Assembly (NCBI GenBank): GCA_964595305.1
Contig: CAZQPW010000002.1
Span: forward strand, 1 to 56,413
Length of the DNA: 56,413 bases
DNA from: an uncultured Candidatus Saccharibacteria bacterium
Lineage (GTDB): Bacteria; Patescibacteriota; Minisyncoccia; Phycocordibacterales; Phycocordibacteraceae
Direction of reading: 5' to 3'
The translations under genes were made by a program, and so were the position numbers. This document shows positions 1,769-47,724 of this stretch, one piece after another. The number at the start of each line of letters is the position of its first letter. Within the stretch, counting starts at the first letter, position 1. Below the pieces are notes generated by a model. The model was not told where the DNA came from and searched no databases. It saw nothing but the letters and a program-made list of their open reading frames with translations.

Positions 1769-2638
1769 ATGGACGACTACGAAAACCCGCGCGACAGAAG
1801 ACGCATCAAACGAACTGCGGCACCGCTCGGTCAACATCTGCTCACTAACCCAAAGTACGCAGCGATGCTCGCTGAAGCAGCGGGGATAAAACGCGGAACA
1901 AATGTGTTTGAAATTGGCCCCGGGAAGGGCATGCTCACGAGCGAGCTGTTGAAGCGCGGGGCAACTGTACTTGCGGTTGAGAAAGACCCCGCAATGATTG
2001 AAGCGCTCGAGGAAACACACCTCTCATATATACGGCGTGGACAGCTCGTTATACGATACGGAGACGCGCGCGAACTCACACCAGACCTCATGTTCCCACG
2101 TGGTGCATATACAATCGCGGCAAACATTCCTTACTACATAACTGGCGAGCTCCTTCGCACCGCACTCACCTCACGCAACCAGCCGCGCGCCCTCGCCTTT
2201 TTAATACAAAAAGAAGTTGCTGAGCGCATTGCGAGAAGTAAAAAAGAGTCGCTCCTCTCACTCTCAGTAAAAGCGTACGGGGAAGCCACGTACGTTACGA
2301 CGGTAAAGCGTGGCAACTTTGCCCCTCCGCCAAAAGTAGACTCTGCGATCTTATCGGTCACCAACATTTCGCGCAAAAACTTCGCACACGTTGATGAAAA
2401 CGAATTCTTTTTCTTGATCAAAACTGCGTTCGGCCAAAAACGTAAAGCATTCCTCGGAACACTTACTCGTGCAAGTAAGAAAGGCGACCTCACTTCACGC
2501 GAATTTTTTGTTGAAGTGCTCCCACGTGCCCACGCTGTACTAGAAAAACATTTCGGAACTGCCCGTGCAAAGAAAATGCGCGCGGAAGACGTTTCGCTCG
2601 AACAGTGGCTAGAAATGCTTGATTTCCGTAAGCGTTAG
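1769..2638 (+). CDS. rsmA: 16S rRNA (adenine1518/1519-N6)-dimethyltransferase RsmA/KsgA
   Basis: Motifs LGQHLLTNP (GQHFL-type), FEIGPGKGMLT (SAM-binding glycine loop) and ANIPYYITG (NIPY). Length of 289 aa is typical. Confidence 0.9.
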   Translation: MDDYENPRDRRRIKRTAAPLGQHLLTNPKYAAMLAEAAGIKRGTNVFEIGPGKGMLTSELLKRGATVLAVEKDPAMIEALEETHLSYIRRGQLVIRYGDARELTPDLMFPRGAYTIAANIPYYITGELLRTALTSRNQPRALAFLIQKEVAERIARSKKESLLSLSVKAYGEATYVTTVKRGNFAPPPKVDSAILSVTNISRKNFAHVDENEFFFLIKTAFGQKRKAFLGTLTRASKKGDLTSREFFVEVLPRAHAVLEKHFGTARAKKMRAEDVSLEQWLEMLDFRKR

Positions 2639-3786
2639 CAGCCGTGACCAGGTACGCATATATGGAAGTGCGGCCCCGTGTTGAAAGTTGAACTACACGA
2701 ACCTTCGTCGTAAAACGTAGTGCCTGTAACAGTATCTATATACCTGCACCCACTATTACCGTATGGAGTAAAATTTTTCTTGATGCAATCATCTATACCG
2801 ACCACATCTAAGGCGCCGCCACCGCCGTGCGTTGCATGCCCGGACTCACTCCCGCCAGAAATAGTAAAGTTTCCACAAATGTTCTTAAGCCGGTCTAGGT
2901 AATCAACTGTCGAACAGCTGAGCCCGCTCACGTCAGTGCAGCCACATGTTTTTGTGGTTGGACAATGAGCAGCAATATACTGTTGGAACGTTTGATTAAG
3001 TCCGCAACCGCTTGCACGGTTTACGGAAATTCCCTTTGCTGAAAGTGTGTCGCGGAGCGTCTGCTCTGCGGCACGCTTATCTACTGCGGAGCTAAAGCCG
3101 GACTCATTGGTCCCACACTGTGACGGAGGCGAACTCTTTTTTAACTTGGGTGGAGGAGTGGGTGGAATTGGACCAGAAGAGCCGTGCCCAGGAGTAGCGC
3201 CGATCATCATACAGGGAAGCTCTACGGTCCCGACCATGCACGCGCCGGGGCCGATATTGGTTCCAAGTAACCACTGCGATGGGTAGGAAGGAGGGCCGTA
3301 TAGGTAACTCCTGCAGATTTCTGGAGTTTGACAGCACAACATCATCGGGGTTGGTGGCCCAATAGTGACATGTATCATCCCGGGAGGAGCAGTGCAAAGA
3401 ACAATCTCGGTTATTGCACCGCCAAAAGGGATGCCCCCCGGAACTGCCGAGACACCAACACCACCAGTGCCCGAACCAGATCCTCCCGCCGAAGGTGACC
3501 CACCGGCTTGGGCAGGAGGTTGAGTGTTAGGAAATACCTGATCTATCTTTTTTTGCAAAAATCGCTCTAGTGCATTGGTAACGGTACTTTGGAAACGCCG
3601 AAAGAAGGAGCTGTCGAAAAGGGAAGCCTTCTTTTTTGACGCAGGGGCTGGTGTGCTGGTTGTAGTAGTGGTGGCTGCTGAAGTGGTCGTCGCGGTCGTC
3701 GTAGCAACAGCACCAACATACGCAGTTGGAACTACTAGAATTGCAGTTAGTGCAGCAGCAAATACGAATCGCGCAAACATACTCAC
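2635..3786 (-). CDS. Secreted Cys-rich protein with a C-terminal LAS/M15-like zinc-peptidase signature (candidate cell-wall hydrolase)
   Basis: Signal peptide MSMFARFVFAAALTAILVVPTAYVGA, then poly-Thr and Gly/Ser linkers. I count 18 Cys in the mature part. The C-terminus reads SGHATHGGGGALDV ... GPHFHICVPGHGC, resembling the SxHxxGxAxD ... xxH zinc ligands of VanY/M15-type peptidases. Confidence 0.45.
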   Translation of the reverse strand: MSMFARFVFAAALTAILVVPTAYVGAVATTTATTTSAATTTTTSTPAPASKKKASLFDSSFFRRFQSTVTNALERFLQKKIDQVFPNTQPPAQAGGSPSAGGSGSGTGGVGVSAVPGGIPFGGAITEIVLCTAPPGMIHVTIGPPTPMMLCCQTPEICRSYLYGPPSYPSQWLLGTNIGPGACMVGTVELPCMMIGATPGHGSSGPIPPTPPPKLKKSSPPSQCGTNESGFSSAVDKRAAEQTLRDTLSAKGISVNRASGCGLNQTFQQYIAAHCPTTKTCGCTDVSGLSCSTVDYLDRLKNICGNFTISGGSESGHATHGGGGALDVVGIDDCIKKNFTPYGNSGCRYIDTVTGTTFYDEGSCSSTFNTGPHFHICVPGHGC

Positions 3787-3839
3787 ACCTTAACTGTACT
3801 ATACATAATCATGCCTTGAATCAAAGCTATACTAAACTC

Positions 3840-4640
3840 ATGCAAGCCCGCAACAACTGGGTGCTCGTTTCGTTGGTCACTGCTTTGATGTCGGGAGTTG
3901 TCGGATATACCGCATATCAAACGTATGCCCCAGCAAAAAATACGCCTGGTGTTACCGTTGTTGCCAGACCGGAAATCGAAAGCAGTGAGTGGCAGAGCGC
4001 TGTGCGGTCGTTCACAAACGTAGGAACCAGCACCGATGCGCCCCGTGGGCCATATCGAGCCCCAAGCGGCATCAGCTCAGTCGATAAAATTTCACGCGAG
4101 CTCGTTGCAGGCTATTTTGAGCAGGCTCGAGATGGCTCATTTACACTCAAAGATCGTAACTCACTACTAAAAGACACTGTCGCTCGCAACGCGCCGCGCG
4201 TAGAGAAGCATCGTGTGTTTACGAATGCCGACTTTATAATTGATGACAAGGTTCCGCTAGACACGTACGCTGCGAATGTAGTCGCCGTGTTAAAAAAAGC
4301 CGAAAGTGTAAAATCGTTTGAGCTTGAGCTTTTTACACAAACCATCAATGCCAACAACGCGTTGGGAACTCCAAAACTTACTGAAGCTTCAAACGTATAC
4401 GCGAGCATAGTCTCGGACCTAACCACCATGCGTGTACCCTCAACTTTTGCCGCGGACCACGTCGCGCTACTTAATTCTGTTGAATCACTTTCAGAAACAA
4501 CAAAACTAATGGGTAACTGGGGAGGCGACCCGATCCTAGCGGTTGCATATATCGATGCGTTTGTAAAAGCGGACAGGGACACGAGCGTTGCTGTTGGTCG
4601 ATTTTTCTACACAGTCAAAAAAACTCTAGCTAAACTATGA
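3840..4640 (+). CDS. Membrane-anchored hypothetical protein, first gene of the T4SS-like operon (bitopic, VirB8-like topology only)
   Basis: I chose the in-frame ATG at 3840 (MQARNNWVLVSLVTALMSGVVGYTAY...) because the track start at 3726 overlaps the divergent gene. There is a single N-terminal TM helix followed by a soluble domain of about 230 aa. Its stop overlaps the next start (ATGA at 4637-4640). Confidence 0.55.
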   Translation: MQARNNWVLVSLVTALMSGVVGYTAYQTYAPAKNTPGVTVVARPEIESSEWQSAVRSFTNVGTSTDAPRGPYRAPSGISSVDKISRELVAGYFEQARDGSFTLKDRNSLLKDTVARNAPRVEKHRVFTNADFIIDDKVPLDTYAANVVAVLKKAESVKSFELELFTQTINANNALGTPKLTEASNVYASIVSDLTTMRVPSTFAADHVALLNSVESLSETTKLMGNWGGDPILAVAYIDAFVKADRDTSVAVGRFFYTVKKTLAKL

Positions 4641-6571
4641 AAAAGAATTTATTTATTGCACTCTTCATGTTGGCCGTGCTCCCATTTGGAGCACACGCCC
4701 TTACTCCCATACAGCAACTTCCGGGGAGTGGCACACCATTTCTCCCAGTTGAAAACACGGAGGGCGGGGCCGCACCAATTCAACAGTACTCGAGCTCCGT
4801 TTCGCAGCTCACCGCACAAGGCGACATGTATGGATGCGAGGGCCAAGGAGGGCAAGGCGGCTCACTTTCAAACGCACTCAACAGTGGGATCGATGACCTG
4901 ATTGGGCAAGGGAAGAACATCATTCGCAGCAAAGCGGGCGAAATATTAGGCAAGCTCGGTCCAGCAAGCGGCATCGCGCAGAAACTCTTGGACAAGGGGC
5001 TGAACATAGTTTCTGGAGAGCTTTCAAATGGCGCAAAGTCACTGCTAAGCTCGATCGGAATTGATGGCGCCCTCTCGGATGCGGCTTCTGCGCTCGGCTT
5101 AGGAAGTGGGGCGTTGGGCGAGGCGCTCGGGGCTGCAGGACTTGGTGGAGGACTAACTGCAGTTCCCACCGCGATCGTCTCAGACCTTAACACTCAAACC
5201 TTTAAAAACACGGAGCAGACAAACGCAGCTATTGACGCACAAACCCGCGCGCTCTATATAAAGGAGTGCTTCTCTGACAAGGCGATCAAGAAAGCAGCCG
5301 CCGCCGTGATCGCACAAGGAACACGCGCATCAATAGACTATCTTAACGGCACTTCAGACGGATACACTAAATACTTCCAGGGTTGGGAGCCTGGCGCCGT
5401 ACGCGATGCACAGTTTGAACAAATTGTAGATGAACAACTCTCAGGACTCTGCTCTCCAACACGCGCAGAAACACAGCAGACTATTCTCACAAGCTACCAA
5501 CGCAGCACCGACCTCGGCTCGCAAGTACAGTGCAACGTTGATGAAGGTGCGCTCGGCTCATTCATACAGGGCGAGCCGTCACAAAATGCGCTCGACAATC
5601 TTTTTTACATGGCGTTTAACACAGAGGGACTCGCGCAGCCGCTCGTAGCGCAACAAATCACAGACAAACAGATAGCCGCAAAGCAATATGAAATAGAGCG
5701 CACAAGATTCCTATCTGGAGATTTCAAAAACGAAGTTGACTGTCCTGTTGAAAAAGTTGGAGGTCTTTGCCCTACGCTTAACCCACATGTTACTGTTCCT
5801 GCGATTTTAAACTCCGAACTAGCAAAAAACAAAATTATTGTTGAACCAAGCCAACAGCAGCTAGCTGCAGACGAAATTGGCGAGATGATCAATGACCTTA
5901 TGGCAACACTTACCCAGCAAGCGTTCCAAGGCCTCGGCGGCCTACTCGGGCTCAGCAAAAAGAGCAAAACCCAGGGCGGGTCTGGTTCGAGTTTTCTTGA
6001 CCAGGTCGCAGGTGACGGTGGAAGCTTTACAGACCAGATTGGTGACACATCGAGCTCAGACGCACTTGCAACAGGGAAAGATGCGATGCTAAACGACATG
6101 GAAGGTACGCTCGGTATTGCAGACGACTACCTCGATATCCTGTATGCGATTACAGACAACCTTGAAAACACAAAAGCAGCATACCGCGATGTGAGTGCAT
6201 GTTACGTCACCCTCACCACGAGCATTTCCAATAAAATTTCTACTGACACCGCACAAAAGCGCGCGGAAGAGGCCTCTACGACAATCAAAAACCTCCTCGA
6301 CCCAGAAATTAAACGCATTGGTAACGTCATTATCGATACCAAAGATGCGATAGCCCAACTTGAAACTATAATGGCAGAGGTGCGTTCAGCCCAGACAACC
6401 GAAGACCTCGCGGCTGCAAGCGCGCAATACCAGAGCATGAAGCAAGAAGGGTTGGTTTACACGACAACCGACATCACGGCACTCACCAATGAACTCACCG
6501 CCGGAGCGCTTGCACTTAAAGTCCTGAACGTCGACGCCACCGATAAACTAAAAGAATGCCGCTCACTCTAA
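4637..6571 (+). CDS. Large secreted hypothetical protein (T4SS-like operon)
   Basis: Signal peptide MKKNLFIALFMLAVLPFGAHA, a Gly/Ala/Ser-rich N-terminal third, and a helical/coiled C-terminal region (LENTKAAYRDVSACY...AQLETIMAEVRSAQ). No family recognised. Translationally coupled on both sides. Confidence 0.6.
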   Translation: MKKNLFIALFMLAVLPFGAHALTPIQQLPGSGTPFLPVENTEGGAAPIQQYSSSVSQLTAQGDMYGCEGQGGQGGSLSNALNSGIDDLIGQGKNIIRSKAGEILGKLGPASGIAQKLLDKGLNIVSGELSNGAKSLLSSIGIDGALSDAASALGLGSGALGEALGAAGLGGGLTAVPTAIVSDLNTQTFKNTEQTNAAIDAQTRALYIKECFSDKAIKKAAAAVIAQGTRASIDYLNGTSDGYTKYFQGWEPGAVRDAQFEQIVDEQLSGLCSPTRAETQQTILTSYQRSTDLGSQVQCNVDEGALGSFIQGEPSQNALDNLFYMAFNTEGLAQPLVAQQITDKQIAAKQYEIERTRFLSGDFKNEVDCPVEKVGGLCPTLNPHVTVPAILNSELAKNKIIVEPSQQQLAADEIGEMINDLMATLTQQAFQGLGGLLGLSKKSKTQGGSGSSFLDQVAGDGGSFTDQIGDTSSSDALATGKDAMLNDMEGTLGIADDYLDILYAITDNLENTKAAYRDVSACYVTLTTSISNKISTDTAQKRAEEASTTIKNLLDPEIKRIGNVIIDTKDAIAQLETIMAEVRSAQTTEDLAAASAQYQSMKQEGLVYTTTDITALTNELTAGALALKVLNVDATDKLKECRSL

Positions 6572-6572
6572 A

Positions 6573-9083
6573 ATGAAAAAAGTATTATTCACACTTTTAC
6601 TTGCAGCGACACTACTAGCAACGGCTCATACTGCAGCGGCCGCACCAAACTGTCCGACATTTGATGTACCCGGGGCAACGGGAGGAAAAGTTAAAATCGA
6701 AACCCAGTCCTTTGATGGAGTAACCTGCGTAGTAAGCACGTCTGACTACGGCAAAATCACCCCTTCAGTTCGAGCACAAATCGGAACGTGCCTTGCGACA
6801 GGATCAACAGCAGGCAAGTGTACCTTAACCGGCACTTTCCTTACTGCTAACCCATCAAAAGATCTTGTTGCTGGCGAAACGGGAGCTCCGGCAGACGGAA
6901 GCACCCCGAGCCCGCTCAACGGGGCGAGTAGAGATATGGCGGCACTTGGCAACCAAGCAAGCTCTGCATTAAACCTCGAGTGTCGTGGGAGCCTCTGCTT
7001 GCCAAAAGTAGTGGGTGACGCGATAGACAGTGTCGGCGACAGCACCACCAGCTGGTTCGGCCAAATCGGCATGGACTTTATTGTGTGGATTCTCGCAAAC
7101 ATTTTCGTAATTATCTTCAAAATTTCGCAATACGCACTGTGGTTCTCGGCAACAGTATTTGACTACGTGCTGTACTACACGGTGCTGCAGTTCGGTAACT
7201 TTGCTAATACCGACGCAACCGAGGTGCTGCGCACTACCTGGGCGCTCGTGCGCGACCTAGTGAACCTCATTATCTTGGGCGGCTTTGTATATATAGCTTT
7301 CGTGATGGCACTCAACATTGATGAAGTTTCAAAAAATACTGGGGCATCAAGCCAGGGTCTCATCAACCTCATCATCGCAGCGGTCCTCGTTAACTTCAGC
7401 TTCTTTTTTGCGGGCGCGATGATCGACGCATCAAACTTCGTTACATCCACCATTTTCCACAGCAATATATTCGCAAAGATCTGCGATCTTTCAAAAAATG
7501 GCAACACATTGAGCCTCGCTCCTCAAACTATTACAACACCAAGCATCATCCCCGGCCAAACTGGATCAATAAATACCCCAGGCATCAACCAGGCACTACG
7601 AGGCTGCTCAATAGGAAATGCATTTGTAAATGTAACCAAACTCCCAACTATCGACGGCAAGGGGCTCGCGAATCCTAGCCAGGCACCAAAGCAGGGTGCA
7701 ACGTATATGTCGCTCCTCGTGCTTTCTCTCCTCGGTTTTATCATGTACTTTACAGCGGCAGGCGTGTTCCTTGGCGCGTCGTTCCTCTTCGTGGGCAGGT
7801 TTGTGGGGCTACTCATCCTCCTCGTGATGTCTCCTATCGGCATAGTGGGAAGCTGGGTACCAATCCCACAGGTGAAGGACCTAGCGAAGAATTGGTGGAA
7901 GGCAATGCGAGAGTACCTTACGTTCCCGCCGCTCTTCATGATCTACATCATGGTCGGCTTTATGCTGCTTGAGCAGGTTGCTCGCCAGCTCTCCGCACTC
8001 GACAACGGCCAGTCGATAGCAACGATCATAAATGCCGAAGCTCTCGCGAGTGGCAAAATCGTTTCGCAAAGCATTTCACTCATTCTCGTATACTTCATTG
8101 GCATCACGGTGCTCACACTTGCGCTCAGCCAGGCTCGCGACTCTGCAAAGGAGGCCGCTTCTGTAAAGTCGCTCGGGATGGACAAGGTGTGGGGCTTCAC
8201 TAACCGCCTTGCAGACTACGGAAACGCGGCAATGACTATTCCATCCAGGGTTTACGACAATACTCTTGGTCAAATACTTGCCCGTATTCCTGGAGTCGCA
8301 ATGATAGAACGCAACACCATCAACCCAATTTTGCGCCAACCCCGTGACAAAGGCTTCTTTAAAACTGACGTCCCTGATGACAAGCAAAAGACCGGCGACC
8401 AGGCTGCAAAAGACATGCGCAAGTCTGTTGAGAAGTTCCTTGATCCTACCGAAGCGCGCGCAAAGCGCGAAGAGCAGCTCAAGATCGGTACAGCAGGCAG
8501 AGTTGCAGCCGAGGAAGAGCGCCGCCGAGATAAGGCAGCTGAGGATAGTAGGATCGGAATGTACCAAGCTCAAACAGTTATTGCTGAGCTGCCACCAGAA
8601 CTTCAGAAACAACACCGCGCAGAGCTTGATGAACTGCAGCGTATCGTTGAGTTTGAGCGCAAGCGCGAGCTAACAGAAGCAGAAAAGGCTCGTAAACAAC
8701 AACTCCTAAAGAACCTTGAAGACCGTGAGGCACAAGTTCTTGGTAAGATTGATGAAAGAATTAAAGGCCTTGGAGCAAACCTGAAGAGGTTGCGAGATGA
8801 CCGTCAAAAACTTATTGAACGATACAACGACCCATCAATTGCAAACAACGAGACCGAAAGGGAGCGGCTCCGAATCGAGATCGGTAAAAAGAATAATGAA
8901 ATAGAGGCCGAAGAAAAGAGAAATAAAAACGAGGAAGATAAAATACTGAAGAAAGATGCTAAGGGCCGCACGATAGTAGAAAGGGTAGGTGACGCACAGA
9001 AGAAACGCAAAGAAGGTGCAGAGAAAGCAGCGGCAGCCCGCCCACCTAAAAAAGATGAAGCAAAGCCTGAAGTGAAGAAGTAA
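6573..9083 (+). CDS. Polytopic membrane protein, VirB6/TrbL-like, with a long charged C-terminal tail
   Basis: Signal peptide, then at least 6 hydrophobic helices (for example IVWILANIFVIIFKISQYALWF, LINLIIAAVLVNFSFFFAGAMI, LLVLSLLGFIMYFTAAGVFLGASFLFVGRFVGLLILLVM). The final 250 aa or so are K/E/R-rich. Size, topology and its position next to PrgI/VirB4 fit VirB6/TrbL. Confidence 0.55.
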   Translation: MKKVLFTLLLAATLLATAHTAAAAPNCPTFDVPGATGGKVKIETQSFDGVTCVVSTSDYGKITPSVRAQIGTCLATGSTAGKCTLTGTFLTANPSKDLVAGETGAPADGSTPSPLNGASRDMAALGNQASSALNLECRGSLCLPKVVGDAIDSVGDSTTSWFGQIGMDFIVWILANIFVIIFKISQYALWFSATVFDYVLYYTVLQFGNFANTDATEVLRTTWALVRDLVNLIILGGFVYIAFVMALNIDEVSKNTGASSQGLINLIIAAVLVNFSFFFAGAMIDASNFVTSTIFHSNIFAKICDLSKNGNTLSLAPQTITTPSIIPGQTGSINTPGINQALRGCSIGNAFVNVTKLPTIDGKGLANPSQAPKQGATYMSLLVLSLLGFIMYFTAAGVFLGASFLFVGRFVGLLILLVMSPIGIVGSWVPIPQVKDLAKNWWKAMREYLTFPPLFMIYIMVGFMLLEQVARQLSALDNGQSIATIINAEALASGKIVSQSISLILVYFIGITVLTLALSQARDSAKEAASVKSLGMDKVWGFTNRLADYGNAAMTIPSRVYDNTLGQILARIPGVAMIERNTINPILRQPRDKGFFKTDVPDDKQKTGDQAAKDMRKSVEKFLDPTEARAKREEQLKIGTAGRVAAEEERRRDKAAEDSRIGMYQAQTVIAELPPELQKQHRAELDELQRIVEFERKRELTEAEKARKQQLLKNLEDREAQVLGKIDERIKGLGANLKRLRDDRQKLIERYNDPSIANNETERERLRIEIGKKNNEIEAEEKRNKNEEDKILKKDAKGRTIVERVGDAQKKRKEGAEKAAAARPPKKDEAKPEVKK

Positions 9084-9084
9084 T

Positions 9085-9963
9085 ATGGACGCAACCGCAA
9101 AGCAACCCATCCCATTCGATGAGCTACCGAAGGTGGTGCAAGACTATTTGTACTCACCTGAACTTTCTGCGTCTGTAGAGTCATTGGGCAAAAAATACAA
9201 GCTGCACCTCGACATCGTCGGAATGATAGAACGCGACATTAACCTAGTGCTCGCAGGCTCTATCACGCTATCAGAATTTGCAGACGATATAGCTCGTGAC
9301 GTAGGCGGAAAGGATAAGGCCGTGCCAATAATTACGGACATACAATCAACTATCTTCAACGTCATCCGTGAAAGGGAGCGCGCTGAAATAGAGAAAAAGA
9401 AAACCGAGCAAGAAGTGAGCACGGTACACGTCGAAGCTACTACACCCCCACCGTTTGTATCAACACCAAACCCGATTAAAAAACCCGAACATCCTGCGGC
9501 GCCGGTTAGTGTCCGAGTGGCAGTACAAAAGGTGCCCACACTTCAAGAAAAAATGGATTCTATCACGACGAGCCGTGCGAGTGTAGTTAAAGTAGACGAG
9601 GTGGTGTCTACTCCGACCATAAGCGAAGAAAAAGCGGCAGCACCAAAGCAGGCCCTTGATACCGTTATTAAGCTCCCGCCGCACAGCGAGGATCACCCGG
9701 ACTTCGTCTCCTCATCGTTAAAAGAGACCCCATTCCCAGCCTCTTCATCTAAAAACGACAAACTCAACGTATCTTTTGAAGCCGCTCCGCCGCCTCCACC
9801 TCCGCCACCTCCAAAACCCGTCGAAACGCCAGTACCCGAGGTTCCCACCGCACCAACTATCCCGACCATCCCTATCATCCCTTCAATCCGCACCATGCCA
9901 AAAAACGCCGCCGAAGCAGCTAAGGCTATCGACCCGTACCGAGAGCTCCTCAATCAAAAATAG
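9085..9963 (+). CDS. Hypothetical protein with a proline-rich C-terminal half (T4SS-like operon)
   Basis: ORF of 292 aa starting 2 nt after the previous stop. The N-terminal region appears globular. The C-terminal region contains the PPPPPPPPPKPVETPVPEVPTAPTIPTIPIIP tract. Confidence 0.55.
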   Translation: MDATAKQPIPFDELPKVVQDYLYSPELSASVESLGKKYKLHLDIVGMIERDINLVLAGSITLSEFADDIARDVGGKDKAVPIITDIQSTIFNVIRERERAEIEKKKTEQEVSTVHVEATTPPPFVSTPNPIKKPEHPAAPVSVRVAVQKVPTLQEKMDSITTSRASVVKVDEVVSTPTISEEKAAAPKQALDTVIKLPPHSEDHPDFVSSSLKETPFPASSSKNDKLNVSFEAAPPPPPPPPPKPVETPVPEVPTAPTIPTIPIIPSIRTMPKNAAEAAKAIDPYRELLNQK

Positions 9964-9978
9964 TGGCATACTAAAGGG

Positions 9979-10410
9979 GTGAGGTACCAAGTCCCGCAAT
10001 TTATTGAAGTAGAGGACAAAATTATAGGTCCGCTTACCTTCGTGCAGTTTATTTACCTGGTGGGAGGACTCGGGTTTATGCTTGGGTGCTACTTGCTTAC
10101 CAACTCTTACATCGTAGCCATAATACTTGGTGGTCCGTTTGCGGTCCTTGGACTAGGGCTTGCGTTTTACAGAGTCAACGATCGACCTCTCATAGACGTT
10201 CTTGAGCACGCGATTACGTTTTACCTGAACTCCCGCGACTATCGCTGGAACAAGGTGGAGCAAAACCCCTCAGATATAGCAAAACAAAAAGCGCTCCAAC
10301 AAATTGACCACAACCAGTTTATACCGGCAGCAACGTCGAATAAAATTAAAGACCTTGCGTGGTCGCTCGACATCAAAGAGTCTATGTATTCTACCAGAGA
10401 CCAAAAATAG
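9979..10410 (+). CDS. PrgI-family / VirB3-like small membrane protein
   Basis: The N-terminus RYQVPQFIEVEDKIIGPLTFVQFIYLVGG is followed by two TM helices, the pattern I recall for PrgI/VirB3-like proteins of Gram-positive T4SS. GTG start. It lies upstream of the VirB4 ATPase. Confidence 0.6.
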   Translation: MRYQVPQFIEVEDKIIGPLTFVQFIYLVGGLGFMLGCYLLTNSYIVAIILGGPFAVLGLGLAFYRVNDRPLIDVLEHAITFYLNSRDYRWNKVEQNPSDIAKQKALQQIDHNQFIPAATSNKIKDLAWSLDIKESMYSTRDQK

Positions 10411-10446
10411 AACAGACAGCGCAAATACTAACGGTATACTGTAGTA

Positions 10447-11112
10447 ATGGCGGCACCATCACCTGCTAAACCTTCGCGCGCGGCCCAAGACTTCGTACCC
10501 GTTAAAGAGGTGCGCGGCGGGGTCATGGTGCTCAAAGACGGCACATTAGTGGGAGTACTTCTTGCCTCTTCACTCAATTTTGCACTTAAAAGTGGCGACG
10601 AGCAGTCTGCTATCCTCGCCCAATTCCAAGCATTTTTAAACTCGCTAGATTTTTCAGTCCAATTTTTCGTCCGTTCGAGAAAACTCGACATACGTCCGTA
10701 CGTTGCCTTGCTTGAAGAGCGTGGCGCTGCCCAAACAGAAGATCTGCTCCAAATCCAAATTCGTGAGTATATTGACTTCGTCAAGACGTTCACACATCGC
10801 GCCAATATTATGTCTAAAACATTTTTTATTGTCGTTCCCTATACACCGGCATACATAAACATCAACAAAACACTTAACATTAACCTGTTCCCAAAGAAAG
10901 CGGGGGACAAGCGAACGGAATCTGAGATAGGTTTTGACGAAAACAGAACGCAACTTGAACAGCGAATGGCAGTTGTCGAGCAGGGGCTTATCCGTTGCGG
11001 GATCCGAACAGCTCCACTTGGCACCGAGGAAGTGATAGAGCTTTTATATAAAGAGTTTAATCCGGGTGACTTAGAGAAACCAATTAGTGTGGGCACCCAA
11101 TCTAATACGTAA
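10447..11112 (+). CDS. Hypothetical protein, possibly a stand-alone VirB4 N-terminal-domain-like protein
   Basis: DFVPVKEVRGGVMVLKDGTLVGVLLASSLNFALKS...LNSLDFSVQFFVRSRKLD resembles the entry segment of VirB4/TrbE N-domains. There is no P-loop. The stop lies 1 nt before the VirB4 start. Confidence 0.4.
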   Translation: MAAPSPAKPSRAAQDFVPVKEVRGGVMVLKDGTLVGVLLASSLNFALKSGDEQSAILAQFQAFLNSLDFSVQFFVRSRKLDIRPYVALLEERGAAQTEDLLQIQIREYIDFVKTFTHRANIMSKTFFIVVPYTPAYININKTLNINLFPKKAGDKRTESEIGFDENRTQLEQRMAVVEQGLIRCGIRTAPLGTEEVIELLYKEFNPGDLEKPISVGTQSNT

Positions 11113-11113
11113 C

Positions 11114-12928
11114 ATGGCACTGTTTGACTTCATCACAGGAAAAAGTTCTGAGAAAAAGGCGGAGCTCACTCCGTTTCTTCCGAAAGATATCTACGAAGCA
11201 GCAAAGCTCGACTTTGCAGACATCATTGCTCCTACCGCACTTTCTGTAAGCTCAAAAGAGCTCGACTTTGGTGTTAAGCTCGTGCGCACGTTCTACGTGA
11301 TATCGTATCCAAGATACCTGAACGACTCGTGGTTTTCGCCGATCATCAACCTCGACAGAATGTTTGACGTTTCAATCTTTGTGCACCCAATTGACACGGC
11401 GTCCGTGCTCAGAAAATTTCAGAAAAAAGTTGCAGAAATCCAGTCGCAGATCATGGTGCGAGAGGAAAAGGGAATGGTCCGCGACCCTATACTCGACACC
11501 GCATACCGCGACATAGAGGAGCTCCGCGACAAACTCCAGCAGGCACAAGAGCGTGTGTTTGAGGTTGGACTCTATATCTCGCTCTATGGCTCAGACGAAG
11601 AAGAGCTCGACAAGGCGGAGGCGGAGGTGCGCTCAATACTGGACGCAAAGCTCGTATATATAAAGCCCGCGCTTTTCCAACAAGAGCAAGGGTTTAAAAG
11701 TGTGATCCCAACAGGATCAGATTTGCTTTCAGTAAGCTCCAAACTAAACTCCTCGCCACTCTCCTCGCTCTTCCCATTCCTCTCATTCGACCTTACCTCT
11801 GATCGCGGGATTCTGTACGGAATTAACCGCCACAACTCTTCACTCGTCCTCTTTGATCGTTTTAGTCTCGAGAACTATAACTCAGTTACATTTGCAAAAT
11901 CTGGTTCTGGTAAGTCTTACGCGACTAAGCTCGAGATTTTGCGTTCACTGATGTTTGACTCAGAGGTGTTGGTGATCGACCCAGAAAACGAATACGAGTA
12001 TCTTGCCAATGCAGTAGGTGGGCGCTTTTTCCAAATATCGCTTTCTTCAGACCACCACATCAACCCCTTTGACTTACCTAAGATTCGTGAAGACGAGTCT
12101 CCGGCAGACGTACTACGCTCAAACATCATTAACTTGGTAGGCCTCTTCCGCATCATGCTCGGCGGCCTTACTCCAGAAGAAGATGCGATTATCGACCGTG
12201 CGATCACCGAAACTTACGCGCTCAAAGACATCACCCCATCTACCGACTTTAGCGAGATGGAACCACCACTACTGTCTGACTTTGAACTTGTGCTCGCAGG
12301 AATGGAGGGCTCTGAATCGCTAGTACAACGCATCACCAAGTACACAAAAGGAACGTGGGCGGGCTTTATCAATCGCCCAACAAACGTAGACATCAACAAA
12401 AAGCTCGTGGTCTTTTCTGTGCGCGACATGGAGGACGAGCTGAAACCGGTGGCAATGTACATCGTTACGCATTACATTTGGAACGCAGTCAGAAGGGAGC
12501 TGAAGAAGCGCCTTTTGGTGGTAGACGAGGCGTGGTGGATGATGAAGTACGAGGACACCGCATCGTTCCTCTTCTCAATGGCAAAACGAGGAAGAAAGTA
12601 TTTCCTCGGTCTTGCAACGATCACGCAAGACGTAGAAGACTTCCTAAAGAGCCCGTATGGTCTGCCGATGCTCACCAACTCTTCAATCCAGCTACTGCTG
12701 AAACAGTCTCCAACAGCAATCGATGCGGTACAGAAGACATTTAACCTTACTGAGGAGGAAAAATATTTACTGTTGGAAAGTGATGTGGGGGAGGGAATAT
12801 TCTTTGCTGGCCTTAAACATGTCGCGATAAAGATTATTGCCTCATACACCGAGGACCAGATCATTACCTCGGACCCATCCCAGCTTCTTGCGATAGCCCG
12901 TGCAAAGAAAGATGGCGAAGGCAAATAA
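11114..12928 (+). CDS. virB4: VirB4/TraC/PrgJ-type type IV secretion ATPase
   Basis: Walker A FAKSGSGKSY and Walker B LLVVDEAWWMM, followed by TQDVEDF. About 600 aa with an N-terminal domain (RTFYVISYPRYL). I chose the ATG at 11114 right after the upstream stop; the track start is 11087. Confidence 0.85.
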   Translation: MALFDFITGKSSEKKAELTPFLPKDIYEAAKLDFADIIAPTALSVSSKELDFGVKLVRTFYVISYPRYLNDSWFSPIINLDRMFDVSIFVHPIDTASVLRKFQKKVAEIQSQIMVREEKGMVRDPILDTAYRDIEELRDKLQQAQERVFEVGLYISLYGSDEEELDKAEAEVRSILDAKLVYIKPALFQQEQGFKSVIPTGSDLLSVSSKLNSSPLSSLFPFLSFDLTSDRGILYGINRHNSSLVLFDRFSLENYNSVTFAKSGSGKSYATKLEILRSLMFDSEVLVIDPENEYEYLANAVGGRFFQISLSSDHHINPFDLPKIREDESPADVLRSNIINLVGLFRIMLGGLTPEEDAIIDRAITETYALKDITPSTDFSEMEPPLLSDFELVLAGMEGSESLVQRITKYTKGTWAGFINRPTNVDINKKLVVFSVRDMEDELKPVAMYIVTHYIWNAVRRELKKRLLVVDEAWWMMKYEDTASFLFSMAKRGRKYFLGLATITQDVEDFLKSPYGLPMLTNSSIQLLLKQSPTAIDAVQKTFNLTEEEKYLLLESDVGEGIFFAGLKHVAIKIIASYTEDQIITSDPSQLLAIARAKKDGEGK

Positions 12929-13358
12929 CAAAGTCACGTTCAGCACATACGTCATTATGCTCTCGGTGGTTGGAGCCATCGACTTGGCGCGCACCATTAC
13001 CTGGGTTGGGTTAACAGCCGCGGGCCTTGTAATAACCGCAACAGCACTCACCGCCACCCAGCTACTAAACTTTATTCCGTTTATGGGTGTTGCTGTGGGT
13101 CTTGCTCAGCAGTCAGTTGGAATTGCCTTGTGGGTTACCGGGATGGTTATCGCAATTATGTTTTCCGTAATCCAGTTTATATTTACTACCCTGTATTACC
13201 AACACCTTGGAGCTTCGTTTCTTGACCGCGGAATGCTTACTCGCCTTGGCAAGGCTCTTGGTCTCGGCTTTTTACCTTTCTCAGGAATAGTCACCACATA
13301 CTTCACACTCAAGCACATAGAGAAGCACGGAAGGGAGTACAATGAGGAGAGCGTATGA
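12912..13358 (+). CDS. Small polytopic membrane protein (T4SS-like operon)
   Basis: The ATG at 12912 (MAKANNK...) overlaps the end of virB4. There are three to four hydrophobic helices. No family recognised. Confidence 0.5.
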   Translation: MAKANNKVTFSTYVIMLSVVGAIDLARTITWVGLTAAGLVITATALTATQLLNFIPFMGVAVGLAQQSVGIALWVTGMVIAIMFSVIQFIFTTLYYQHLGASFLDRGMLTRLGKALGLGFLPFSGIVTTYFTLKHIEKHGREYNEESV

Positions 13359-14305
13359 AACGCCTCGTCATATTCTGTACCTGCCTACTTTTGATACCCG
13401 CGTTTTCACATGCGGCGGCGCGCTCTATTGAGCTTGTAACCGAGCCGGAATACCCAAAACCAAACCAGGCGCTCGTTGTTCGTGCGCACCTCAAGCAAGG
13501 AACACCTTCTGCAACACTTTTTACCTGGAGCGTTGACGGAAAACAGGTGAGCGCGGGAACAGGGATAGACAGTGTTATCACAACAGCCCCAGCAGCAGGC
13601 AAAACGCAGACAGTGAGCGTTACTACCGAAAACGGATCATACTCGGAAACTGTACACACGATCATCCGACCCGGATCAGTAATTCTTTCTTGGAACGCTC
13701 TTACCCTAACACCACCGCTCTACCGTGGCCGAGCGTTGCCGACACCCAAAAGCAGCGTCATACTCTCGGCTACCCCTCGTATCGTTGATAACGAAGGCGG
13801 ACTAGTGCCTTCCCGGTCAGTAAACTACACCTGGTATGTCAACAATGTCCCTGACATAGCTGCAAGCGGCAAAGGAAAACAGAGCTACGTATACACGTTT
13901 GGTCTTCTTGCTCGACCAGTCACTATAAGTGTCATCGCGGGGTCGCCAGACGGCACCGTTACCGCGAGCGATAGTACACCAATTACAACTACGAAACCTA
14001 GGTTAGTTTTGTACGAAAAGCGACCGCTTGAGGGGCTCCTCCTCAACAAGGCGGTAGCAGGAACATACGCATTTACAGAAAACGAGCTAGATTTACGTGC
14101 ATATCCAGTCTTTGCGTCAGACGTAAGTCGCATTAAACCAAAATGGACTATCGATGGCGCTCCGTTTGAGATCACAGGGGAGCCGTGGTTAGCAGTGTTT
14201 AAAAAGACCGGCTCAGGTGCTGGATCAAAAAACGTTTCCGTAACCACCTCTCACCCTACAGACTTTCTCTCGACAATGAGCACTAATTTGCTGCTACAAT
14301 TTTAG
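13355..14305 (+). CDS. Secreted protein with three repeated beta-rich modules (T4SS-like operon)
   Basis: Signal peptide MKRLVIFCTCLLLIPAFSHA. There are three similar modules, each built around a W-x-[VI]-[DN] core: LFTWSVDGKQV, VNYTWYVNNVP and IKPKWTIDGAP. A 4-nt overlap links it to the previous gene. Confidence 0.55.
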   Translation: MKRLVIFCTCLLLIPAFSHAAARSIELVTEPEYPKPNQALVVRAHLKQGTPSATLFTWSVDGKQVSAGTGIDSVITTAPAAGKTQTVSVTTENGSYSETVHTIIRPGSVILSWNALTLTPPLYRGRALPTPKSSVILSATPRIVDNEGGLVPSRSVNYTWYVNNVPDIAASGKGKQSYVYTFGLLARPVTISVIAGSPDGTVTASDSTPITTTKPRLVLYEKRPLEGLLLNKAVAGTYAFTENELDLRAYPVFASDVSRIKPKWTIDGAPFEITGEPWLAVFKKTGSGAGSKNVSVTTSHPTDFLSTMSTNLLLQF

Positions 14306-14306
14306 T

Positions 14307-14684
14307 ATGACAGCACTTCGTGTTCTACTAGTTTTTGTACTTTCGATACCATACGTTGCGAGTGCGGCAAGCGAATTCGTTCCGATAGCGCCTATACCTG
14401 TGGCTGGTGGAGAGCTGAACAGCAATACGACTCTCGGCGAATATGTAAACGCCCTTTTCCAGATCGGCATTGGCATTGCAGCTGTCTCTGCAGTGATTCA
14501 AATCGCATATGGTGGGTATGAATATCTCCTTAAGGATTCGGGCTTTACAAAGAAAGACGGCCGGGAAAGAATTTTAAAGGCGTTCCAAAGTCTCCTCATT
14601 CTCCTTTTGGTATACATCATCTTGTATGTAATCAACCCCGACCTGGTGAAGCTAAATGTTTTAAACCCGAGCTCTTTTAGGTAA
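14307..14684 (+). CDS. VirB2/TrbC-like T4SS pilin
   Basis: Signal peptide ending ASA/AS, then two hydrophobic helices (ALFQIGIGIAAVSAVIQIAYGGYEYLL and SLLILLLVYIILYVINPDLV) separated by a basic loop. The INP-x-L ending matches my recollection of the CPR 'T4SS pilin' family. Confidence 0.65.
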   Translation: MTALRVLLVFVLSIPYVASAASEFVPIAPIPVAGGELNSNTTLGEYVNALFQIGIGIAAVSAVIQIAYGGYEYLLKDSGFTKKDGRERILKAFQSLLILLLVYIILYVINPDLVKLNVLNPSSFR

Positions 14685-14685
14685 C

Positions 14686-15885
14686 ATGTTGCCACGCCAA
14701 TACATCATCCCAGCAATTTTTGTCGGAGCAATCGTGGTTCTCTTGTTAGGCTTAGCGCTGTTCCGCAGCGCATCATCGACCACCAACACCACCGCTACAA
14801 AAACTAGCTATTTTTCTTCTTTATTTCCTTTTGGAAGTGGTGACGTCACACCAAACGAGCCGGGTAACACTGGGGCAGGGAACAACATACCAGACGGTGG
14901 AGTTTTGCCCGCGCTGCGGAAGGTCACTGACAGCAAGGTGCTTGCTGCCGAATTTGGTTACAACAAAAACGGCTTGGTGGTGCGCTACGTAGAACGTGGA
15001 GCTGGCCACATCTACGAGGCGCGTGTCGACGTCCCAGGATCAGAACGGCTCACCAACACAACGATTCCTGGGGCAGAAGAGGTTTTGTTTGTTGGGGCAT
15101 CTTCAACTTTGTATAGATTTTCTACAGATAACGAATCGGTAGAAAACTACTTGGGGTACCTGCCTCTTGGGACCTCAACCCAGCTTTTAACAGGAGACAC
15201 ACTCCCTCCATACTCTCGAGTATCAGTTTCGCCGTCAGGGAAAACAGCTGTTGGGCTACTCTTCGCTGGTACAAACGCCGTGCTTGATACAATAAACCCA
15301 AAAAAAATATCTGAAAGAAAGTCGCTGCTTTCTCTCCCCACAAACGCTTGGTTGCCTTATGCCACAGACAACGGAGTATTCCTTGCTGACCTACCTAGCT
15401 CTGCTGCCGCTGGCTCATTGCAGAAGGTGGTCAACGGATCGCTCGTACCCGTCATAACTAACATACCGGGCCTCCAAGCATCACTGAACCCAACTGGCCA
15501 GTACGCGATTATCTCTTCAGCAGAGGGGGCAAGCGTTTCTACGTTTATATTTGGTGTTGACGACCGCTCGGTTCACTCTCTTCCGTTTTCAACCATTGCA
15601 GATAAGTGTGCGTGGTCAATGTACGAACCAACTAGTTTTATATGTGCTGTACCCACCTCGCTCCCACGCGCAACGTACCCAGACGACTGGCTGCTAGGAA
15701 GCGTCTCTTTTGCAGATACCTTGTGGTTCGGTGACGCGGTTACACAAAAAGTTGAGGAGCGCAGCCACATTAGCGACGACCAGGCGATCGACGCGGTCAA
15801 CATTTCTATCGATCAAACAAAAAACTATTTGATATTTAAAAACAAGTCGGACGAATCACTCTGGATCCTAGACCTTTTCCGCTAG
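14686..15885 (+). CDS. Membrane-anchored extracytoplasmic hypothetical protein, last gene of the T4SS-like operon
   Basis: N-terminal TM helix IIPAIFVGAIVVLLLGLALF, a Thr-rich linker, and a beta-rich domain of about 340 aa. It starts 2 nt after the pilin stop. Confidence 0.55.
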   Translation: MLPRQYIIPAIFVGAIVVLLLGLALFRSASSTTNTTATKTSYFSSLFPFGSGDVTPNEPGNTGAGNNIPDGGVLPALRKVTDSKVLAAEFGYNKNGLVVRYVERGAGHIYEARVDVPGSERLTNTTIPGAEEVLFVGASSTLYRFSTDNESVENYLGYLPLGTSTQLLTGDTLPPYSRVSVSPSGKTAVGLLFAGTNAVLDTINPKKISERKSLLSLPTNAWLPYATDNGVFLADLPSSAAAGSLQKVVNGSLVPVITNIPGLQASLNPTGQYAIISSAEGASVSTFIFGVDDRSVHSLPFSTIADKCAWSMYEPTSFICAVPTSLPRATYPDDWLLGSVSFADTLWFGDAVTQKVEERSHISDDQAIDAVNISIDQTKNYLIFKNKSDESLWILDLFR

Positions 15886-17376: not shown

Positions 17377-17520
17377 TTAGCGAGAAGAAACTGTAAGAGC
17401 TTTTCTTCCTTTTTGGCGACGTCGCTTCAGCACTCGTTTGCCAGTTTTTGTTTTGCTTCTAGATCGGAAGCCGTGTGTTTTTGCGCGCTTTCGTTTTTTT
17501 GGCTGATATGTTCTTTTCAT
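17377..17520 (-). CDS. rpmH: 50S ribosomal protein L34
   Basis: This ORF is not in the track because it is under 60 aa. My translation of the minus strand is [47 protein letters not shown], with a stop at 17377-17379. Confidence 0.9.
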
Positions 17521-17527
17521 ATATTAA

Positions 17528-17548
17528 TTATACACATGGTTATACACA
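17528..17548 (+). promoter_or_regulatory. Two tandem DnaA-box-like 9-mers upstream of dnaA
   Basis: TTATACACA occurs at 17528-17536 and again at 17540-17548. Each matches TTATNCACA and is 8/9 to TTATCCACA. Both lie in the rpmH-dnaA divergent spacer. Confidence 0.6.
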
Positions 17549-17610
17549 ATTAGTACCATATTCACACCCTAAACGCAATCTTGCCGAATTATCAACATGC
17601 GCGATAATAG

Positions 17611-46905: not shown

Positions 46906-46906
46906 C

Positions 46907-47419: not shown

Positions 47420-47724
47420 TCAGCTCACTACTTAAAAGAATCACTACACTCTTTTCTTCGCGCGATGCAGAGCGCGACTACGGAGTGGTAACTGCAATCG
47501 CTGGCGTCTTTTTTGTAGCGCTTGTATTGATCACTATCGGCAACTATTTGCCGCAGGCAGCGCCTGAGGCGGTCGTGGTCCCGCCGCCGCCAGTACCCGT
47601 TACGGACGCAGATTTTCAAAAAATGATCAATATTTATAGTGCGAGAGTGGAAGCTTTCCAGGCAGGCTCGTTTCCTTTCCTTAAACTACCAGACCCTTCG
47701 CGCGCGACAGCACCTAAAAAATAG
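47416..47724 (+). CDS. Small bitopic membrane protein (pilMNO operon tail)
   Basis: 102 aa with one TM helix (VVTAIAGVFFVALVLITIG) and a Pro-rich segment. A 4-nt overlap links it to the previous gene. Confidence 0.45.
   Translation: MISSLLKRITTLFSSRDAERDYGVVTAIAGVFFVALVLITIGNYLPQAAPEAVVVPPPPVPVTDADFQKMINIYSARVEAFQAGSFPFLKLPDPSRATAPKK

Follow-up and report, generated by a model that had tools for sequence, protein, structure and literature searches.

What is a set of type IV secretion genes doing beside the replication origin of a bacterium of the Patescibacteriota: is it a conjugative element, or a machine that the lineage has made its own? We addressed this question for contig CAZQPW010000002.1 of GenBank assembly GCA_964595305.1, from an uncultured Candidatus Saccharibacteria bacterium. 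The 56,413 nucleotides (nt) analyzed, positions 1 to 56,413 of the forward strand, are referred to here as the window, and all coordinates are positions in it. The operon in question runs from 3840 to 15885 on the + strand. It is very probably a type IV secretion system (T4SS) of the Patescibacteria clade, derived from the conjugation machinery of monoderm bacteria (MPF-FATA) and domesticated as a core operon next to the origin. A first-pass annotation, made from the letters alone, had proposed a domesticated, non-conjugative envelope machine derived from a T4SS in a putative episymbiont, and that proposal was upheld: the operon encodes a genuine VirB4, it is a syntenic core in 80 species, and no conjugation or integration genes were found in the window.

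Core components and layout of the operon

The operon consists of 11 open reading frames (ORFs), all on the + strand and labeled g1 to g11, and not of 12 as first counted, because the only intergenic spaces inside it, 15 nt before 9979 and 36 nt before 10447, are too small to hold a twelfth. Lengths are in amino acids (aa), and TM stands for transmembrane.

g1, 3840 to 4640, + strand: bitopic membrane protein, anchored by an N-terminal TM segment and all-alpha in its extracytoplasmic domain; opens the operon (alternative start, TTG at 3726)
g2, 4637 to 6571, + strand: secreted protein of 644 aa with a signal peptide, rich in Gly, Ser, and Ala and helical in its C-terminal half
g3, 6573 to 9083, + strand: extended VirB6/TrbL-like polytopic protein of 836 aa
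g4, 9085 to 9963, + strand: soluble protein of 292 aa, no TM segment
g5, 9979 to 10410, + strand: PrgI/VirB3-like small membrane protein with two TM segments
g6, 10447 to 11112, + strand: TrsD-like protein, homologous to the N-terminal domain of VirB4 but free-standing
g7, 11114 to 12928, + strand: VirB4 ATPase of the CD1110/MPF-FATA type
g8, 12912 to 13358, + strand: small polytopic membrane protein with three to four TM segments
g9, 13355 to 14305, + strand: exported protein of 316 aa with a signal peptide and probably immunoglobulin (Ig)-like beta-sandwich domains
g10, 14307 to 14684, + strand: VirB2-like T4SS pilin of 125 aa, no C-terminal extension
g11, 14686 to 15885, + strand: N-terminally anchored extracytoplasmic protein of 399 aa; closes the operon

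The signature protein of T4SSs, a VirB4 ATPase, is encoded by g7. Its product matched NCBIfam conju_CD1110 at 2.9e-111 (373 bits; cutoff, 325) over residues 34 to 580 and Pfam P-loop_TraG at 7.6e-23, and it carries a Walker A motif (AKSGSGKS) and a Walker B motif (LLVVDE). The only PDB matches were VirB4 of Thermoanaerobacter (4ag5; 9.3e-40) and R388 TrwK/VirB4 (2e-4), with no HerA or FtsK among them. Judged from its sequence, g7 is a true VirB4, and its type is that of monoderms (CD1110/MPF-FATA). The probability that it is instead a HerA/FtsK-type translocase, in a cluster unrelated to type IV secretion, is negligible. Pfam DUF87, the HerA central domain, does match g7 (6.5e-6), but this match is limited to the P-loop region (residues 269 to 330), and the ATPase is flanked by genes for PrgI, TrsD, a VirB6-like protein, and a pilin; the strength and extent of the conju_CD1110 match and the VirB4-only PDB matches rule that identity out. 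Plasmid VirB4s were at most 35% identical to g7, the best of them coming from Bacillota and Actinomycetota and being annotated as members of the CD1110 family. Placed by pairwise identity (73 to 86% to its Patescibacteria relatives versus at most 35% to plasmid proteins), g7 appears to group with Patescibacteria VirB4s, at a distance from MPF-FATA.

TrsD-, PrgI/VirB3-, VirB6-, and VirB2-like genes all lie beside virB4. The first-pass annotation had recognized VirB6-like, PrgI/VirB3, VirB4, and VirB2-like parts, and these identifications were recovered, PrgI and VirB4 directly and above cutoffs, VirB6 through its orthologues, and the pilin through its orthologues and a structural model. The g5 product matched Pfam PrgI at 2.6e-10 with 41.1 bits (gathering score, 27). 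The g6 product stayed below the curated cutoffs, with matches to NCBIfam VirB4_plasma (3.5e-7; profile positions 100 to 233 of 894), TrsD (3e-6), and conju_CD1110 (profile positions 2 to 109); because these matches fall on the N-terminal part of the VirB4 models and on TrsD, VirB4 is split here into an N-domain protein and a motor. In g3, a signal peptide and an exported N-domain are followed by about seven TM segments (residues 164 to 518) and a highly charged C-terminal tail of about 300 aa, the layout of an "extended VirB6." The protein itself had no direct Pfam match; of its orthologues, 6 of 36 matched Pfam TrbL/VirB6 (best, 1.9e-7), and the family profile weakly matched TrwI/VirB6 (7o3v_F; E = 0.084) in the TM region, the only membrane protein among its PDB matches. 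The component set has a VirB6-like protein of the extended type, PrgI/VirB3, VirB4 as a TrsD-like N-domain plus a CD1110-family ATPase, and a single VirB2-like pilin. Six lineage-specific partners accompany it, four of them exported or membrane anchored, one polytopic, and one cytoplasmic.

From g1 to g11 the junctions measure, in order, -4, +1, +1, +15, +36, +1, -17, -4, +1, and +1 nt. The overlaps and 1-nt spacings quoted in the first-pass annotation were all correct on recount, and the single, tightly packed operon that it described is real. Only g1, g5, and g6 have free upstream space, and each of them has a TATACT-like box (3824 to 3829, 9965 to 9970, and 10435 to 10440) 7 to 16 nt upstream of the start codon, that of g1 lying 11 to 16 nt upstream of its ATG. 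This placement suggests that leaders are very short or missing and that promoters may exist inside the operon. Scans of the sequence for generic promoters and terminators were at chance level (12 versus 14.2 expected and 17 versus 17.2 expected) and were uninformative on operon structure. At the 3' end, the stop of g11 overlaps the stop of the convergent gene jag by 4 nt (15882 to 15885), so that no space is left for a terminator between the two genes.

Conservation, origin context, and mobility

One genome per species was scanned, which gave 574 VirB4 relatives, and the best 80 of these 574, chosen by VirB4 similarity, were taken as loci for comparison. All 80 are metagenome-assembled genomes (MAGs) of the Paceibacteria/Parcubacteria type, with the VirB4 identities of 73 to 86% given above, and in them the operon occupies the same site between ksgA and jag. 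The recurrent gene order is uvrD, ksgA, a bitopic protein of about 300 aa, a secreted protein of about 500 aa, VirB6-like, a soluble protein of 200 to 390 aa, PrgI, TrsD, VirB4, a small polytopic protein, g9, pilin, and g11, followed by jag-yidC-rnpA and then by dnaA-dnaN-pbp1. TrsD was present in 78 of the 80 loci and PrgI in 74.

Median identity to the window proteins was 75% for VirB4, 55% for TrsD, 41% for PrgI, 34% for the pilin, 27% for both g9 and g11, and 25% for the VirB6-like protein; for the flanking genes it was 52% (DnaA) and 38% (DnaN). The cytoplasmic parts of the system are thus the conserved ones (75, 55, and 41%), and the exposed parts evolve fast (25 to 34%). VirB4 identity exceeded DnaA identity in all 54 loci that hold both, a contrast inflated by the selection of the loci on VirB4 similarity. 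The strong purifying selection on VirB4, TrsD, and PrgI that these values point to hints at an important function.

The genes around the operon place it in the chromosomal core. Those that define its setting are as follows.

uvrD, 8 to 1759: upstream flank
ksgA, 1769 to 2638: upstream flank
Cys-rich secreted protein, 2635 to 3786, - strand: 383 aa, 18 Cys, signal peptide; divergent from the operon
rpmH, 17377 to 17520: downstream flank
dnaA, 17611 to 18963: downstream flank

Downstream, the order is jag, yidC, rnpA, and rpmH and then dnaA, dnaN, and a gene for a class A penicillin-binding protein. The cumulative GC skew has its minimum, and GC content drops to about 0.40, at about 16 to 20 kb. 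The 90-bp spacer between rpmH and dnaA holds three DnaA-box-like 9-mers (TTATACACA twice and TTATCAACA) at 17528 to 17597, and the count of this motif across the whole window was not above chance (14 versus 9.9 +/- 3.0). The operon adjoins the replication origin. Its location in the chromosomal core beside jag-yidC-rnpA-rpmH and dnaA, as the first-pass annotation had it, was confirmed, with all of these genes present and the skew minimum close by. By the GC skew (minimum at about 17 kb), the 12-kb operon lies, together with uvrD and ksgA, on the lagging strand, with transcription toward the origin and head-on to replication, and this orientation is retained in the relatives.

In an absence scan, Pfam was run on every other sizeable ORF of the 56-kb window, and it found no relaxase, no coupling protein of the VirD4/TraG/TcpA/FtsK type, no VirB11, no integrase, and no transposase. 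The other large P-loop proteins in the window are UvrD, PilB, RuvB, and DnaA only. Around the cluster, flanking direct or inverted repeats amounted to short, imperfect chance matches; no tRNA adjoins the operon, and the nearest lies at 34093, 18 kb away. The first-pass statement that relaxase, coupling ATPase, VirB11, integrase, and flanking repeats are missing therefore holds for the window. Housekeeping genes abut the operon, overlapping it by 4 nt on the 3' side and lying about 50 nt away on the 5' side, and its GC content is similar to that of the flanks, without a compositional break.

We weighed these data against the reading that the operon belongs to an ordinary integrative and conjugative element (ICE), or a remnant of one, whose relaxase, coupling protein, and integrase lie just beyond the contig. 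The VirB4 family is annotated as a conjugal transfer ATPase, the data are a single 56-kb contig, and a minority of Patescibacteria do carry relaxases (PMC12102498). The site between ksgA and jag-yidC-rnpA-rpmH-dnaA, however, is identical in 80 species-level genomes, VirB4 is conserved above DnaA in a region of even composition, and the borders have neither integrase, repeats, nor tRNA, with housekeeping genes directly against them. A relaxase, a type IV coupling protein (T4CP), and an integrase with att repeats or a tRNA are lacking in the window, and so are the variable site and patchy distribution of a mobile element. We consider an ICE very unlikely and reject it: synteny and conservation argue against one, and the window has no mobility gene. 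Because site and order are fixed in 80 species, VirB4 is conserved, and plasmid VirB4s are at most 35% identical, the operon is, as far as comparative sequence data can tell, a vertically inherited core derived from monoderm conjugation machinery and not an ICE.

The rest of the window is largely housekeeping, with RuvABC, PolA, a class I tRNA synthetase, a Mur ligase, UDG, Ogt, UppS, a pseudouridine synthase, L19, TsaE, and others. A PilB-type ATPase of 553 aa (26841 to 28502, - strand; T2SSE, 5.8e-111; MshEN domain) is a type IV pilus gene product, and PilM (45285 to 46355, + strand) is followed by three small ORFs without a Pfam match (46357 to 47724, + strand) that may be PilN/O-like. A SET-domain protein of 129 aa (48380 to 48769, - strand; Pfam SET, 2.2e-13) occurs here in a reduced bacterial genome.

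Published relatives and lineage-specific partners

T4SSs near dnaA and without relaxases were already described in Patescibacteria between 2023 and 2025, and the window copy is another example. Using transposon sequencing (Tn-seq), Wang et al. 2023 (PMC10633639) found that the saccharibacterium Southlakia epibionticum requires the "apparent T4SS" SEML1_0006 to SEML1_0019 for epibiotic growth; that system lies beside dnaA, dnaN, and recF, is nearest to Gram-positive conjugative systems, has essential pilins, and contains no recognizable coupling or relaxase proteins. The phylum-wide survey by Quinonero-Coronel et al. 2025 (PMC12102498) reported that Patescibacteria VirB4s form one monophyletic clade with affinity to MPF-FATA, that TrsD, PrgI, VirB6, and VirB2-like genes lie near virB4, and that only 103 genomes have relaxases, and it located the T4SS of Paceibacteria and Microgenomatia near dnaA, dnaN, rnpA, ksgA, and rpmH. 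A 2025 review (PMC12857230) counts the Patescibacteria systems as the latest additions to the T4SS superfamily and raises, as speculation, a pilus that acts as a conduit in uptake. Since the same conclusions are given in PMC10633639 and PMC12102498, the interpretation of the first-pass annotation is supported but is not a discovery.

Like the systems of this clade (SEML1_0005 to SEML1_0019 and those of the survey), the window operon has the order VirB6-like, PrgI, TrsD-like, and VirB4, followed by exported proteins that include an Ig-like one and by VirB2-like pilin(s). It is likewise chromosomal and adjoins dnaA and dnaN, with rnpA, rpmH, and ksgA near, and it has no relaxase near virB4 and no T4CP in the cluster. 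Unlike the S. epibionticum cluster, with its array of six pilin genes and its two VirB6-like genes, it has a single gene of either kind and no lysozyme-like genes after virB4, and it has a TolB-like g11, a helical bitopic g1, a hypervariable g2, and a divergently transcribed Cys-rich protein with a LAS-type domain; all of its genes are on one strand with overlapping junctions, which is the Paceibacteria arrangement.

With the MPF-FATA systems (pCF10 PrgH-I-J-K-L/PcfC, the CTn2 CD1110 family, and pGO1 Trs), the operon shares a CD1110-family VirB4, PrgI and TrsD homologues, and the lack of the outer-membrane core proteins VirB7, VirB9, and VirB10. In pCF10, the order is VirB6, VirB3, VirB4, the wall hydrolase position, and a bitopic protein, and the window operon is collinear with it. 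In contrast to these systems, whose plasmid VirB4s are at most 35% identical to g7, the window operon has no relaxase, T4CP (PcfC/VirD4), adhesin (PrgB), or recognizable VirB8-like protein; it does have a VirB2-like pilin, which MPF-FATA systems lack, and it is not on a mobile element.

The first-pass annotation had further listed eight exported or membrane partners without a nameable family (at 3840, 4637, 9085, 10447, 12912, 13355, 14686, and 2635). A signal peptide or TM segment is present in six of the eight, and the proteins at 9085 and 10447 have neither; moreover, the one at 10447 (g6) can be named, as a TrsD/VirB4 N-domain-like protein.

At the start of the operon, g1 is homologous to 23 of 37 positional equivalents; a single-sequence search recovered 2 homologous proteins and a profile search 17. 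An AlphaFold2 model from the 17-sequence alignment is a helical bundle with a predicted local distance difference test (pLDDT) score of 68.8, and Foldseek against the PDB gave nothing below E = 0.18, its matches being generic bundles, talin and chemoreceptor domains among them. As an all-alpha model without a significant PDB neighbor, g1 is not an NTF2-fold VirB8. More generally, g1 as the missing VirB8 or VirB5 was not supported, with an all-alpha bundle and no VirB8 or VirB5 match in the PDB. The next gene, g2, was detectable in only 4 of 40 positional equivalents, so its position is conserved and its sequence hypervariable; it had no Pfam, NCBIfam, or PDB match and is a candidate surface or host-contact component.

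Two further partners, g4 and g8, likewise had no match in Pfam, NCBIfam, or the PDB. The soluble protein g4 is homologous to 25 of 44 positional equivalents, and in its family (alignment A5) the N-domain is conserved, a Pro-rich linker follows, and the C terminus is a nearly invariant DPYRE motif, which looks like a docking peptide. For g8, the 34 equivalents by position form a family whose hidden Markov model (HMM) meets g8 only at E = 1.1. The protein is highly divergent, the two nearest relatives lack it, and we assign it to the operon by its position and its overlapping junctions (-17 and -4 nt).

The last two partners flank the pilin, and g9 was present in 72 and g11 in 63 of the 80 loci. 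The g9 profile weakly matched Ig-like folds in the PDB (NAR, 0.0038; Hoc, 0.0075), and the protein is probably an Ig-like beta-sandwich. By analogy, it may be the positional and functional counterpart of SEML1_0005, the essential exported Ig/PEGA protein of S. epibionticum. The g11 protein has one N-terminal TM segment and a conserved Cys pair. A 40-sequence profile of it matched the beta-propeller of twelve TolB chains (about 3.5e-4 to 1e-2), and its orthologues weakly matched the propeller families PD40, DPPIV_N, and eIF2A; g11 is probably a membrane-anchored, TolB-like beta-propeller.

Pilins, wall enzymes, and function

The pilin assignment of g10 comes mainly from its orthologues and its topology. 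Among 53 syntenic orthologues, 49 matched Pfam T4SS_pilin and 14 matched TrbC/VirB2. The protein has a signal peptide and two hydrophobic helices with a basic loop, the arrangement of VirB2/TrbC-type pilins, and taken alone it is sub-threshold; given the basic loop, both termini are predicted to lie outside the cell. An AlphaFold model from 98 sequences (pLDDT, 78.8) shows the signal helix and a hairpin of helices 43 to 75 and 79 to 109 at a pLDDT of about 90. No second pilin gene was found with the pilin HMM in six-frame ORFs of the window. With the pilus module of MPF-T/F systems (Agrobacterium VirB and R388 Trw), the operon shares the VirB2, VirB3, VirB4, and VirB6 types and the pilin plan of signal peptide, helix, basic loop, and helix, and TrwK/VirB4 and TrwI/VirB6 are the PDB relatives found. 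It differs from them in that no VirB5 tip protein, VirB1, VirB8, or VirB11 was recognized, in its monoderm envelope, and in that its pilin orthologues often have large C-terminal domains. To our knowledge, such domains are not known for classical VirB2/TraA pilins.

At the syntenic loci, g10 orthologues are mostly 200 to 770 aa long and consist of the hairpin and a Cys-rich, extremely variable C-terminal extension; 47 extensions fell into about 35 unrelated sequence clusters. Where an extension among the 53 orthologues could be recognized, it was a cell wall enzyme, with counts of YkuD (4), SLT (2), Peptidase_M15_4 (2), VanY (2), NlpC/P60 (2), Amidase_5 (2), and CHAP (1), and the enzyme domain was C-terminal to the pilin domain in every fusion whose coordinates were checked (loci noted for extensions at the pilin position: L009, L013, L019, L022, L029, L031, L042, L052, L063, L066, L069, and L078). 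Fusions were surveyed more widely by an exhaustive profile search of cluster representatives, which gave 69,140 representatives of the pilin family at E <= 1e-3; a word-indexed profile search listed only proteins of up to 219 aa. In an unrelated global sample of 63 long pilins, about 10 had wall enzymes, with SLT in 7 and M15_4, NlpC/P60, CHAP, and SLT_2 among the others. We found no description of this fusion pattern in the searchable literature, the coverage of which is incomplete. A separate observation from the search of cluster representatives concerns proteins P0138 to P0167 (for instance, P0144 with 1,775 aa and P0152 with 1,147 aa), which contain 2 to 17 separate pilin-domain matches per polypeptide and could be fused pilin arrays or gene-calling artifacts.

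The Cys-rich protein at 2635 to 3786 appears to belong to the same pattern. Alone, it had no Pfam or PDB match. Its residues 273 to 328 align to the extension of the pilin orthologue at L029 (phmmer, 5e-8 in a set of 68 sequences), and its C-terminal domain is common to the extensions of four pilin orthologues (L019, L029, L031, and L069). This domain has a zinc motif, H-x6-D ... H-x-H, of the LAS type (Hedgehog/DD-peptidase, M15-like), and in alignment A12 the residues E85, H88, H91, D98, H144, and H146 are invariant, with the pattern GGSE..GH...H..G.A.D ... H.H. All 23 PDB matches of a 6-sequence profile were Hedgehog N-domains aligned on the zinc site (E, 0.07 to 0.45), and we use the LAS-type label because these matches, weak in score, are coherent. 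The protein is a candidate cell wall peptidase and a possible VirB1 analogue. A bare pilin here, together with a separate, divergently transcribed protein that carries the same LAS-type domain, suggests a split/fused gene pair.

How might such a machine work? VirB4 dislocates membrane-inserted VirB2, pilus biogenesis is independent of VirD4, and in Agrobacterium and R388 the pilus platform is built by VirB2, VirB3, VirB4, and VirB6, the components present here without a coupling protein. The mechanism that we propose has five steps, and as a whole we give it an even chance. VirB6, VirB3, TrsD, and VirB4 would form a membrane platform; pilin inserted by Sec/YidC would be pulled out of the membrane by VirB4, as in Agrobacterium, and polymerized into a pilus or a short conduit across the cell wall. 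The exported g1, g2, Ig-like g9, and propeller g11 would supply wall-spanning and host-contact parts. A wall enzyme, fused to the outward-facing C terminus of the pilin in many relatives and here possibly the separate LAS-type protein at 2635 to 3786, would open peptidoglycan, either the cell's own or that of the host. Operating without a coupling protein, the whole would serve as a device for symbiont-host contact, in protein export or in the uptake of host material, and not for conjugation.

A broader idea, which we put forward tentatively as possible but short of probable, concerns the pilin family itself. The VirB2-like pilin of Patescibacteria may be a modular carrier, in which a conserved hairpin handled by VirB4 and VirB6 bears hypervariable, Cys-rich, outward-facing domains, many of which would cut or remodel peptidoglycan, whether fused or split off as in the protein at 2635 to 3786. 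By analogy with polymorphic toxin systems, the essential T4SS would then be a coupling-protein-independent "enzyme-armed pilus" that breaches the host wall and sets host range.

The same fusions can be read without a filament. In that case, the hairpin would be a membrane anchor, or a carrier releasable by VirB4, for exo-enzymes, comparable to PrgK/TraG, the VirB1-type hydrolases that Gram-positive T4SSs anchor by a TM segment, and the system would be a channel for wall remodeling and secretion. The enzyme classes carried by the orthologues (SLT, NlpC/P60/CHAP, M15, and YkuD) are those of Gram-positive VirB1 proteins, the pilin gene sits at the prgK position after virB4, monoderm MPF-FATA systems have no pilus (PMC12102498), and Foldseek was unable to confirm the pilin fold. 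Yet 14 of the 53 orthologues also match the classical TrbC/VirB2 pilin family, most family members, g10 included, are bare pilins without an enzyme, and Saccharibacteria keep essential arrays of six bare pilins (PMC10633639). We therefore regard a system without a filament as rather doubtful.

A second functional alternative, compatible with the identity that we prefer for the operon, is an import machine like the T4CP-less ComB of Helicobacter pylori, one that would feed an auxotrophic cell with DNA, nucleotides, or other host macromolecules. ComB (DNA uptake), Bordetella Ptl (toxin export), and Brucella VirB resemble the window operon in having no VirD4-type coupling protein, and they are examples of VirB4-based machines that take DNA in or send out proteins delivered by Sec. 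They differ in being diderm MPF-T systems with VirB7 to VirB10 cores, they are not essential for growth, and the homology seen here is confined to VirB2, VirB3, VirB4, and VirB6. Import has been proposed for Saccharibacteria on the ground that they can do without comEC but not without the T4SS (PMC11665869 and PMC12857230), the locus lacks T4CP and relaxase, and the window holds type IV pilus genes and a secreted SNase-type nuclease. On the other side, there is no DNA-binding or ComEC-like component in the operon, and wall-enzyme-bearing pilins fit breaching and contact equally well. Import is, in our judgment, unlikely. The nuclease itself (53720 to 54301, + strand; SNase, 4e-28) has an N-terminal hydrophobic segment and bears on ideas of host nucleic acid scavenging. 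The roles named in the first-pass annotation, which were host contact, DNA uptake, and effector delivery, are current speculation in the field (PMC11665869 and PMC12857230).

It is important to note the points that weigh against our interpretation, in addition to the selection effect on the VirB4 and DnaA comparison. Neither a VirB8-like (PrgL/TraM) nor a VirB1-like (PrgK/TrsG) protein of the MPF-FATA kind was identified in the operon near virB4, and Pfam found no SLT, CHAP, or NlpC/P60 domain in it. The assignment of g3 to VirB6 is transitive, by way of orthologues and the family profile. The direct match of g10 to Pfam T4SS_pilin (1.2e-3) is under the gathering score, and Foldseek returned for its model only non-significant helical hairpins, with an archaeal conjugative pilin at rank 45 (E = 5.5), the fold being too generic to discriminate. 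For the protein at 2635 to 3786, the LAS peptidase assignment consists of a motif and weak E values (0.07) with no direct Pfam match, and a homologue was detectable in only 1 of the 80 loci (L002). We know of no experiment on any Paceibacteria T4SS and of no observation of a pilus. A T4CP or relaxase elsewhere in the genome is possible; T4CP homologues are common in Patescibacteria and rarely near virB4 (PMC12102498). A 2024 perspective (PMC11665869) calls the role of the saccharibacterial T4SS "completely unknown."

Few machines are known to be essential to the epibiotic way of life in a huge and mostly uncultured branch of bacteria, and the Patescibacteria T4SS is one of them. As a member of this class, the window operon is nothing categorically new; it offers a clean example from the Paceibacteria, in which the operon ranks with the most conserved parts of the genome and its surface parts evolve fast. 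What the present analysis adds are the probable TolB-like reading of g11 and Ig-like reading of g9, an all-helical g1 that is not a VirB8, and the pattern of enzyme-bearing pilins, with a bare pilin and a putative LAS-type protein here. Of these, the pilin wall-enzyme pattern is the one lead that is possibly new, and it may be more useful than the operon itself. If true, it would mean that the machine presents wall-cutting or host-specific modules at the site of contact, which is a concrete and testable proposition.

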